Shown: one piece after another, positions 45,153 to 45,953 of the stretch | Layout: each line of letters starts with the position of its first letter | How positions within the stretch are numbered: position 1 is the first letter of the stretch | Source of the DNA: a virus | Taxonomy: Duplodnaviria; Heunggongvirae; Uroviricota; Caudoviricetes | Length of the DNA stretch: 64,000 bases | Reading direction: 5' to 3' (one strand) | IMG/VR virus record: IMGVR_UViG_3300001336_000001 | Coordinates: 42,836 to 106,835 of that record | The notes under the pieces: model-generated | Database searches by the model: none | The model's input: the letters and a program-made list of their open reading frames with translations, nothing else | What the model was told of the DNA's origin: nothing | Made by a program: the position numbers and the translations under genes

Positions 45153-45953
45153 TTAGATAGGTTCTTCATCTTTAAATACAACCCCAACTTTATTGGTAAT
45201 TTGATTAAAAATCGGGTACTCAATAATTTTAATAAGACTTCTCTCGATAAGTAAGTTTGGGTTCTTATGAGCATTGTGTTTTGGGGGTAAACTTGCAAGT
45301 TCTTCCTTAGAAAATGCACTTGAAGTTTTGATTCGCTTTATATAAGTCCCTCGCTTATACTTGGCTGGTAAGTCATTCCAGTTAACACTCTTTTCAAGCA
45401 TTAATTTATCTTGTATTTCATTACCATTTAATCCTTGCAATTCCTTGTGTGAAAACAAACTCTGTGCAAGCATTGAAATACTATTTTTTGTTGCATCATT
45501 TTCTCTCCAAAGTAGCTGGATAGTTGCATCATGAAGTGTTGGTGTTTGATAGATTCTAGCATCAAAAACCGCAATTTTATCATGCTCTGGTAGTAATTCT
45601 TTTCTTCTTTCGTTAAAAAAGTTTACACACTTTGCTGTGAGCTTAGATAAAATCTTTTGTTTCTTACCTTCATGGTAAATGTTTGACTTTCTATCATCTG
45701 AGTATAAAATTAAAGTAATCTCATCACTCTGAGTGTACCCGATAACTGCGTTCGTCTCCTCAACAAGAAACTTTGTTGTATCAACCATAAGTTGATTTAA
45801 TTTTTCATCAAAAGGTTTATTTAACCCCTTTGTCCACTTGCTGAAGTTGTTTCCGTCAAGTCTGATTATTACTGGTAGGGTGGGAATCATTATTTCTGGT
45901 GAGAAGTTTTTCTCAAGCCATTTGCACCAGTCTCCAATTGTTTCAAAATTCAT
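45153..45953 (-). CDS. Thg1-like protein (tRNA-His guanylyltransferase family, 3'-5' polymerase)
   Basis: PVIIRLDGNNFSKWTKGLNKPFDEKLNQLMVDTT...IGYTQSDEITL parallels the Thg1 segment VVVRLDGRNFHRF...KPNDSRALQLM...YGQSDEYSF. Confidence 0.65.
   Translation of the reverse strand: MNFETIGDWCKWLEKNFSPEIMIPTLPVIIRLDGNNFSKWTKGLNKPFDEKLNQLMVDTTKFLVEETNAVIGYTQSDEITLILYSDDRKSNIYHEGKKQKILSKLTAKCVNFFNERRKELLPEHDKIAVFDARIYQTPTLHDATIQLLWRENDATKNSISMLAQSLFSHKELQGLNGNEIQDKLMLEKSVNWNDLPAKYKRGTYIKRIKTSSAFSKEELASLPPKHNAHKNPNLLIERSLIKIIEYPIFNQITNKVGVVFKDEEPI

Follow-up and report, generated by a model that had tools for sequence, protein, structure and literature searches.

A Thg1-like protein gene in an RNA-repair island of an uncultured huge phage, with tRNA 5'-end repair as its probable role

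Why should a huge phage encode a polymerase that works in the reverse direction? To our knowledge, Thg1-like proteins (TLPs) are the only known 3'-5' polymerases, and we know of no case in which their natural role has been shown in bacteria, still less in phages. The locus that raises the question lies in a stretch of 64,000 nucleotides of tailed-phage DNA (positions 42,836 to 106,835 of IMG/VR record IMGVR_UViG_3300001336_000001; hereafter the window), where a gene for a TLP stands among genes for RNA ligases and other RNA-repair enzymes. Our answer, given with moderate confidence, is that this TLP repairs or maintains the 5' ends of tRNAs in general by templated addition. It would thus be the 5' counterpart of a co-encoded CCA-adding enzyme, within a toolkit by which the phage would also heal and seal broken tRNAs.

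Identity, active site and fold of the phage TLP

The gene is a single ATG-started open reading frame (ORF) of 266 aa on the minus strand, occupying exactly 45153..45953. Residues 31-81 of its translation hold the string RLDGNNFSKWTKGLNKPFDEKLNQLMVDTT...YTQSDEITL, in which the original prediction, made from the sequence alone, had recognised the Thg1 catalytic core. Profile searches bear this out to a degree that chance would not give: the Pfam family PF04446 (Thg1) matches residues 20-138 over profile positions 11-130 of 130 (E 5.5e-25), scoring 88.2 bits against a curated cut-off of 29.2 bits, and PHROG 4717, 'tRNA-His guanylyltransferase', matches residues 5-262 (E 1.1e-70). NCBIfam contains no model matching the protein. 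The best match among PDB sequences is 4kgk, the TLP of Bacillus thuringiensis (BtTLP; E 9.8e-43, residues 4-205). Eukaryotic Thg1 structures (3otb, 5xox and 3wbz) follow far behind at E 3e-9 to 4e-8, and the archaeal TLP structure is weaker too, eukaryotic Thg1 and archaeal TLP together spanning E 3e-9 to 3e-6. We conclude that the gene is a genuine member of the Thg1 family, and that this assignment is secure.

The functional residues of BtTLP were taken from Hyde et al. 2013 (PMC3701042) and mapped onto the phage protein via an HMMER alignment and a MAFFT alignment with relatives; conservation was counted over 28 phage-derived sequences, one of which (L026) is N-terminally truncated. The three carboxylates, D30, D75 and E76 in BtTLP and D29, D76 and E77 in human hTHG1, correspond to D33, D77 and E78, and the activation-step lysine and serine (K43 and S74) to K46 and S76. 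Residues for NTP binding and transfer (R28, R131, R147 and E12) are found as R31, R133, R150 and E14, and the nucleotidyl-transfer lysine K99, equivalent to hTHG1 K95, as K100. Thus the three carboxylates and the lysine that the original prediction had named as a check are all intact, and, the profile match being significant too, the prediction passes the refuting conditions that it had set. D77 and E78 are invariant in 28/28 sequences and D33 in the 27 that cover its column, as in BtTLP and hTHG1, while position 46 is K in 12 and R in 15; the remaining mapped positions are invariant or nearly so. At the position of BtTLP M158, which is Asn in eukaryotic Thg1, the phage protein has M161, and 24 of the 28 sequences have M there, the others I, S or C. 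In place of HINNLYN, the eukaryote-specific motif by which human Thg1 recognises the anticodon (PMC6471195, PMC3701042), the phage protein reads TKNSISM, which resembles BtTLP. Since 4kgk is by far the better match, HINNLYN is missing and Met occupies the M158 position, sequence comparison places the protein among the bacterial-type TLPs and not with eukaryotic-type Thg1.

An AlphaFold2 model was built from an alignment of 26 homologues (predicted local distance difference test, pLDDT, 85.7; predicted template-modelling score, pTM, 0.81). In a fold search with this model all 32 PDB matches at E<=1e-3 are Thg1/TLP chains, the best being 4kgm (E 6e-20, TM 0.77-0.82 on target), and unrelated palm-fold proteins are reached only at E above 2e-3. 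Compared with phage and cellular relatives, the gene shows nonsynonymous divergence (dN) of 0.14-0.26 with synonymous divergence (dS) saturated and dN/dS below about 0.1, and is therefore maintained by selection. As judged from its active-site residues, the enzyme is apparently active and catalytically competent.

The original prediction had further supposed that a phage Thg1-like gene beside two RNA ligases, as a means of tRNA 5'-end repair, was undescribed, and here we have to disagree. Homologues are found by tblastn in 162 GenBank phage records, at up to 51.5% identity. In many of these records the gene carries the annotation Thg1 or tRNA-His guanylyltransferase, the first case being Pseudomonas phage 201phi2-1 ('putative Thg1'), and PHROG 4717 bears the name as well. 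Anantharaman, Iyer and Aravind reported in 2010 that genes for polynucleotide kinase, Macro domains and RNA ligase occur near Thg1, and discussed two roles for phage Thg1, maturation of tRNA-His or RNA repair that counters host defences (PMC2904730). The Bc431v3 genome paper of 2013 highlighted the Thg1 gene of that phage (PMC3601020), and Iyer et al. 2021 list Thg1 among the RNA-repair enzymes of jumbo phages, in some of which it is the 5'-end counterpart of the CCA-adding enzyme (PMC7824862). The claim of novelty fails because of these 162 records, the discussions of 2010 and 2021 and an annotated island in Vibrio phage D69: phage TLPs are already known by annotation and comparative genomics, and the gene in the window is a further example.

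RNA-repair genes and tRNAs around the TLP gene

The origin of the window from a huge phage is backed by endolysin, sigma-factor, integrase-like and other PHROG matches and by 26 related IMG/VR viral contigs with sizes up to 676 kb. No DNA near-identical to the 42-49 kb region of the window was found among GenBank phages, and the window belongs to an uncultured lineage. Positions of the features discussed are given in Table 1.

Table 1. Features of the window, with related tRNAs and TLP loci elsewhere
Feature	Position	Strand	Basis
Rnl1 (T4 RnlA-type) RNA ligase	45957..47075	-	PF09511 E 4e-13, TIGR02308 E 1e-18, PHROG 562 E 5e-43
HD-domain protein, RelA/SpoT-hydrolase (small alarmone hydrolase, Mesh1) type, 169 aa	44571..45080	-	PF13328 HD_4 E 4.6e-11
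Rnl2-family RNA ligase	42920..43957	-	PF09414 E 1.8e-10, PHROG 548 E 1.6e-55
Polynucleotide kinase (PNK)	48589..49506	-	AAA_33 E 8e-10, PHROG 505 E 3.5e-15
RlaP (RNA-ligase-associated Pol-beta) nucleotidyltransferase	37829..39016	-	PF10127 E 5e-24, PHROG 388 E 3e-50
CCA-adding enzyme / tRNA nucleotidyltransferase	56305..57447	-	PF01743 E 1e-38, PF12627, PHROG 2244 E 1.4e-53
tRNA array: Asn, His, Trp, Ser, Ile, Met, Arg x2, Ser and one Rfam-only tRNA	51292..53319	-	ARAGORN, Rfam
Second tRNA array: Lys x3, Gly, Thr, Tyr, Gln x2, Pro, Met	27463..29148	-	ARAGORN, Rfam
tRNA-His(GUG), 84 nt, long variable arm	53159..53242	-	Infernal tRNA model 43 bits, ARAGORN
Long-arm tRNAs in the window	27463-27553, 27696-27778, 28407-28490, 52641-52727, 53159-53242	-	
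Long-arm tRNAs elsewhere	L081 33056-33145, 33399-33485; L157 37294-37559; L158 4462-4543, 17971-18060		
Chromosomal Bacteroidota TLP loci	L083, L084, L085-L097		

All genes in the TLP part of the window share the minus strand. The two RNA ligases that had been predicted beside the TLP gene are indeed present: the stop codon of Rnl1, which has the ligase motif KxDG (read as KLDG) at residue ~91, lies 3 nt upstream of the TLP start codon, and the Rnl2 gene lies 1.2 kb downstream of TLP. Rnl2 is also matched by TIGR02307, at E 1.6e-9, below that model's cut-off. Between TLP and Rnl2 come a gap of 72 nt after the TLP stop codon, the HD gene and an ORF of 87 aa. A scan of 42.5-49.7 kb for promoters and terminators found sites no commoner than in shuffled sequence, so that an operon structure can be argued only from the common strand and from the gaps of 3 nt and 72 nt. 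Within 12 kb either side of TLP are also the PNK, RlaP and CCA-enzyme genes and a tRNA array, which lies 5.3-7.4 kb upstream of TLP. These surroundings amount to the gene set of an RNA-repair island in the sense of Iyer et al. 2021 (PMC7824862).

Two of the neighbours merit separate comment. In the PNK, residues 20-167 alone match the kinase domain of T4 Pnkp (PDB 1ly1/1ltq); its C-terminal ~130 residues show no match to the T4 HAD phosphatase and a weak one to tRNA_lig_CPD, the fungal tRNA-ligase cyclic phosphodiesterase (CPD) of 2H/CPD type (E 0.0024), suggesting that the protein may have a kinase-CPD architecture like that of Trl1. The best PDB relatives of the HD protein are Lmo0812, Mesh1/HDDC3, small alarmone hydrolases (SAHs) and Rel hydrolase domains. 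Toxic alarmone synthetases (toxSAS, such as CapRel and FaRel2) pyrophosphorylate the CCA ends of tRNAs, by which translation is blocked, and SAH-type hydrolases counteract them. A phage HD protein of this type in a tRNA-repair island could by analogy be a tRNA 3'-end de-pyrophosphorylase, or else an alarmone hydrolase.

Three other genes of the window were noted in passing. A DenV/pyrimidine-dimer-glycosylase-like gene (48037-48522, minus strand) adjoins the kinase gene, as it also does in three related contigs (L064, L073, L109) and in Vibrio phage D69; a tyrosine-integrase-like gene lies at 12472-13284 (minus strand); and an IS-type transposase gene (29868-31049, minus strand; PHROG 506, E 3e-128) lies ~720 nt from the second tRNA array.

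The window carries about 20 tRNA genes, on some of which the predictors disagree. Rfam at its gathering score adds two tRNAs for which ARAGORN has no call (52951-53025 and 27908-27976, minus strand), and five ARAGORN tRNAs are absent from the whole-window Rfam run: Trp, Ser(UGA), a Met and Gln(CUG), at 53031-53104, 52803-52886, 52263-52336 and 29076-29148, and the tRNA-His. The last was missed because of speed filters, and reaches its 43 bits once the search is confined to a short piece of sequence. Five tRNAs of normally class I type have long variable arms like those of class II, namely Lys(CUU) of 91 nt, Lys(UUU) of 83 nt, Gln(UUG) of 84 nt, Ile(GAU) of 87 nt and His(GUG). In LR745206, a related huge phage, Lys, Gln, Asn, Arg and Pro tRNAs likewise occur in long form, next to ordinary copies. 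We found no relevant paper in a literature search for such long-armed phage tRNAs; the arms might help the tRNAs to evade nucleases that target them, might change their synthetase identity or might serve a function like that of allo-tRNAs.

Probable repair of tRNA 5' ends and the mobility of the gene

How would such an enzyme act in repair? By homology, TLP would activate the 5'-monophosphate of a tRNA with ATP or GTP in two-metal-ion chemistry and would then add nucleotides in the 3'-5' direction with the 3' strand of the acceptor stem as template, so that tRNAs short of 5' nucleotides would be rebuilt. The phage would carry the gene as an accessory cassette in its tRNA-maintenance and repair toolkit, and the toolkit as a whole (the tRNA genes, Rnl1, Rnl2, PNK, RlaP, the CCA enzyme and the HD protein) would keep the tRNA pool usable during infection. 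BtTLP, for its part, performs templated addition to 5'-truncated tRNAs of any identity with a kcat/KM 5-160-fold above that for addition of a G at position -1 (G-1), and Watson-Crick-templated addition with a preference for 5'-truncated tRNAs is documented for both BtTLP and MaTLP (PMC3061083). We infer that tRNA 5' ends are the substrate of the phage TLP and that repair is its role, and any link to host defence is of the same kind; the role put forward in the original prediction, counter-defence through repair of tRNA 5' ends, is the most plausible one.

Two further lines of evidence support the repair reading, beside the fold, active site, selection and gene context described above. The first is that similar contexts occur elsewhere: the island of Vibrio phage D69, the contigs L022/L023, and LR745206, where the TLP gene is flanked by tRNA genes. 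In the last (LR745206.1, 369176-370167; L081 14177-15168) it starts 135 nt after a tRNA-Ala gene and has tRNA arrays on both sides, with 32 predicted tRNAs in 49 kb. The second is that carriage of TLP is independent of phage tRNA-His, as in Variovorax phage V45v66 and LR745206.

Set against this are a number of considerations that keep our confidence moderate. Bacterial TLPs, too, have no established in vivo role; our literature search found no biochemical or genetic study of any phage TLP, and a 2019 review of the enzyme family makes no mention of phages or viruses (PMC6471195). We identified here no host nuclease that makes 5'-truncated tRNAs in phage infection. The close cellular homologues lie beside aminoacyl-tRNA synthetase or elongation factor G (EF-G) genes and are extremely conserved, which is more housekeeping-like than damage repair, and the tRNA-His of the window appears to need a G-1, which is maturation and not repair. 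Lastly, the setting of the gene is not constant. In the 26 related viral contigs, whose TLPs are 66-81% identical to that of the window, most flanking genes have nothing to do with RNA repair, and each contig has different ones; RNA-repair neighbours were seen only in L022/L023 (in the order RlaP-TLP-nucleotidyltransferase) and L024 (Rnl1 3.7 kb downstream of TLP). In contig L073, which is syntenic with the window (CCA enzyme 67%, PNK 53%, DenV-like 74%, Rnl1 65% and HD protein 88% identical), the 803-nt TLP segment is replaced by ~208 nt with an unrelated ORF of 75 codons (MTYEFYKELGEL...; L073 861-1070 against window 45139-45942).

Homology between L073 and the window resumes on both sides of the TLP slot, and a further contig, L027 (ENA ERZ28594420 scaffold_50028), reveals a second discontinuity at the same place. 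L027 keeps Rnl1 beside TLP and, compared with window 44968-46645, is 99-100% identical from the TLP start codon through the intergenic stretch to the start of the HD gene, while the adjoining 3' part of Rnl1 is 47-80% identical per 100 nt, giving a sharp mosaic boundary at the Rnl1 stop and TLP start. Such a boundary suggests that recombination took place recently where the two genes meet, or that the Rnl1 allele diverges fast or has been replaced. No ligase was found near TLP in LR745206 or FADO, and the 49 kb examined of LR745206 held no homologue of the RNA ligases, kinase or CCA enzyme. Comparison of these loci indicates that the Rnl1-HD slot takes variable cassettes and that TLP moves as one of them. 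Thus the adjacency of TLP and ligase is real in the window but is not a conserved operon, since both the L027 boundary and the L073 slot show cassette behaviour.

Rival roles and known systems

The strongest rival, compatible with repair, is that TLP mainly adds G-1, templated by C73, to the long-arm tRNA-His of the phage for the host histidyl-tRNA synthetase. In bacterial tRNA-His the G-1 opposite C73 is normally encoded by the gene. The only tRNA-His gene of the window can be read in two ways. The first, on which Infernal and ARAGORN concur, is the canonical register with a 7-bp acceptor stem from G53242 and a 5-bp T stem; here G53242 is +1 (G+1:C72), C53159 is the discriminator C73 and U53243 is at -1. 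The second is an 8/4 fold with A8 paired to U65, which would make G53242 itself the G-1, though it requires several irregularities: the T stem would have 4 bp and the D stem 3 bp, and position 26 would take one nucleotide more. The gene apparently has no encoded G-1, going by its canonical register, and its tRNA is a possible substrate of TLP.

Pattern scans of viral contigs yielded six more distinct members of this long-arm lineage, or seven in total, with compensatory changes in acceptor pairs 3:70, 5:68, 6:67 and 7:66 and in the variable arm. A8, G49 and U65 are invariant in all seven, and covariation cannot separate the canonical from the 8/4 register. The base at -1 is T in six of the seven, the seventh (L107) having a G placed to pair with C73, whereas cleanly parsed phage tRNA-His genes of ordinary length have G at -1 in 6/7 cases. 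Contig L109 pairs two ordinary tRNA-His genes encoding G-1 with one long-arm gene that does not. The ordinary counts exclude 73-nt phage tRNA-His genes with two U.U mismatches, which the T-loop-anchored register script mis-parses; an enterobacterial tRNA-His query found mostly T4-like phages and was likewise left out of the statistics. These mis-parsed genes belong to a widespread family of 73-74-nt phage tRNA-His(GUG) (L028, L030, L031, L034, L041 and duplicates), in which the two U.U mismatches fall in the acceptor stem and the register is ambiguous; one reading gives them an encoded G-1 and CCA and a T stem of only 4 bp.

Given the T at -1 in the lineage and the G in ordinary phage genes, addition of G-1 to the long-arm tRNA-His is a reasonable hypothesis, and there is enzymology to match: BtTLP performs templated G-1 addition on C73 tRNA-His (PMC3061083), and Dictyostelium DdiTLP2 does so in vivo on mitochondrial C73 tRNA-His (PMC6471195). 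We nevertheless think it doubtful that the huge phage runs its own Thg1-type tRNA-His maturation, with TLP adding G-1 opposite C73 of the long-arm, G-1-less tRNA-His(GUG). None of the 26 TLP-positive IMG/VR contigs (seven of which exceed 200 kb) is a long-arm tRNA-His contig, and no tRNA-His lies within 10 kb of TLP in the 26 related viral loci; conversely, L073 has a long-arm tRNA-His and no TLP in the syntenic slot. The comparison of tRNA-His with TLP across genomes sampled three TLP-positive genomes, and co-occurrence of TLP with a G-1-less tRNA-His was seen in the window only: LR745206, the closest GenBank relative, has TLP and two ordinary tRNA-His genes, both with G at -1, and the complete genome of V45v66 has TLP and no tRNA-His. 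A blastn search of GenBank phages with the Asn-His tRNA pair matched the Asn half alone. Furthermore, the host probably owns a TLP itself, and many of the TLP-positive GenBank phages infect Caulobacter, Brevundimonas and Rhodobacterales. These hosts fall in alphaproteobacterial groups whose tRNA-His has no G-1, which we also count against the maturation reading.

The next rival follows from the origin of the gene. At E<=1e-10 the TLP clade takes in 3,821 database proteins, the best 120 of which are all 74-98% identical. Among species-representative genomes, 13 loci turned up whose identity to the phage TLP is 72-78%, nearly all in Bacteroidota metagenome-assembled genomes; the Bacteroidota carriers are Saprospirales, Chitinophagales, Cytophagales/Raineya, Lutibacter and Sediminibacterium. 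On the 4.1-Mb chromosome of 'bacterium 336/3' (L083 8001-8846) TLP follows a gene for a class-I aminoacyl-tRNA synthetase, with 9 nt between the two, and in a contig from Saprospiraceae (L084 8001-8816) it adjoins the EF-G gene. By sequence similarity the phage TLP is a member of this Bacteroidota clade; because of its 72-78% identity to the chromosomal genes, it was probably captured from a Bacteroidota host lineage, which suggests Bacteroidota as the host phylum. A very recent transfer as the cause of the high identity is ruled out, synonymous sites being saturated. The strong conservation of the chromosomal genes suggests that they have an important housekeeping role. The phage gene might then be a host-derived passenger or housekeeping back-up, duplicating the function of the Bacteroidota TLP, possibly on non-tRNA RNAs, with no specific tie to the ligases or to anti-defence. 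Such an explanation would account for the identity to chromosomal genes in housekeeping contexts, for the highly variable position of TLP among phage genomes and its unrelated neighbours, and for the cassette-like replacement in L073 and the mosaic boundary in L027; it could also appeal to DdiTLP4, which acts on non-tRNA RNAs and is essential, its function not being known (PMC6471195). We consider it improbable, given that the phage copies are under strong purifying selection, that TLP is kept across many huge-phage lineages and that it stands repeatedly beside tRNA or RNA-repair genes (D69, LR745206, L022). Finally, a degenerate Thg1 or a palm enzyme with other chemistry, such as the cyclic-nucleotide synthesis of GGDEF, Cas10 and mCpol relatives, is effectively refuted: the Thg1 palm fold is common to GGDEF and Cas10 polymerases (PMC2904730) and weak fold matches to adenylyl cyclases and Cas10 occur at E above 2e-3, but the activation and nucleotidyl-transfer residues are all conserved, identity to BtTLP is 41% over ~200 residues, and in the fold search the E-values of Thg1/TLP chains are lower by 8 orders of magnitude or more.

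Whichever of the better readings holds, the locus sharpens the question of what TLPs do, by offering a strongly conserved Bacteroidota relative, cassette mobility and a concrete candidate substrate. If the long-arm tRNA-His proves to be that substrate, it would be the first physiological substrate for a bacterial-type TLP. Were the maturation reading true, it would also be the first instance, in bacteria or their phages, of a G-1 added after transcription, and would tie TLP to an apparently undescribed set of long-arm class-I tRNAs (Lys, Gln, Ile and His here; Asn, Arg and Pro in LR745206).

How, then, does the phage TLP compare with known systems? Its closest solved relative and top fold match is BtTLP (4KGK/4KGM), at ~41% identity over residues 4-205, and the two have in common the carboxylates, Lys, Ser and Arg, together with the Met that TLPs have where eukaryotic Thg1 has Asn. 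BtTLP is shorter, at 245 aa against 266 aa, and belongs to a Firmicutes clade rather than the Bacteroidota/huge-phage one; the C-terminal ~60 residues of the phage protein fall outside the BtTLP alignment, and are conserved in phage and Bacteroidota homologues. Templated 5'-end repair has been demonstrated for BtTLP, while the phage enzyme is known here from sequence. The annotated phage Thg1s (201phi2-1, Cronobacter phage GAP32, Caulobacter phage CcrColossus and Bacillus phage Bc431v3 gp143, among others) are of the same family, at 33-46% identity by tblastn, and come mostly from large or jumbo phages with many tRNAs; the TLP of the window differs in that its clade is one of huge phages that are uncultured and AT-rich, and in being much closer (72-78%) to cellular Bacteroidota genes.

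Dictyostelium DdiTLP2 and the archaeal Thg1/TLPs combine a TLP-type enzyme with a C73 tRNA-His without encoded G-1, as the window appears to do. Those systems are organellar or archaeal, and in them the dependence is shown or general, whereas the co-occurrence in the window fails in other TLP-positive phages. Phage T4 offers a different parallel. Its Pnkp and Rnl1 restore tRNAs that host nucleases have cut, and the window contains homologues of both the kinase and the Rnl1-type ligase. T4 has no TLP, however, and the healing and sealing of an anticodon loop is chemically unrelated to templated 5' extension; the window PNK, moreover, is without the HAD phosphatase domain of T4 type. Alike in gene content is the island that Vibrio phage D69 carries (OZ195729), which brings together Rnl2, CCA enzyme, hydrolase, DenV-like gene, RlaP-type nucleotidyltransferase, TLP, Rnl1, PNK and phosphoesterase. 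Its genes stand in another order and are distant in sequence (TLP 39%, Rnl1 25% and RlaP 27% identical), and it is in the window that TLP directly abuts both Rnl1 and the HD gene of alarmone-hydrolase type.

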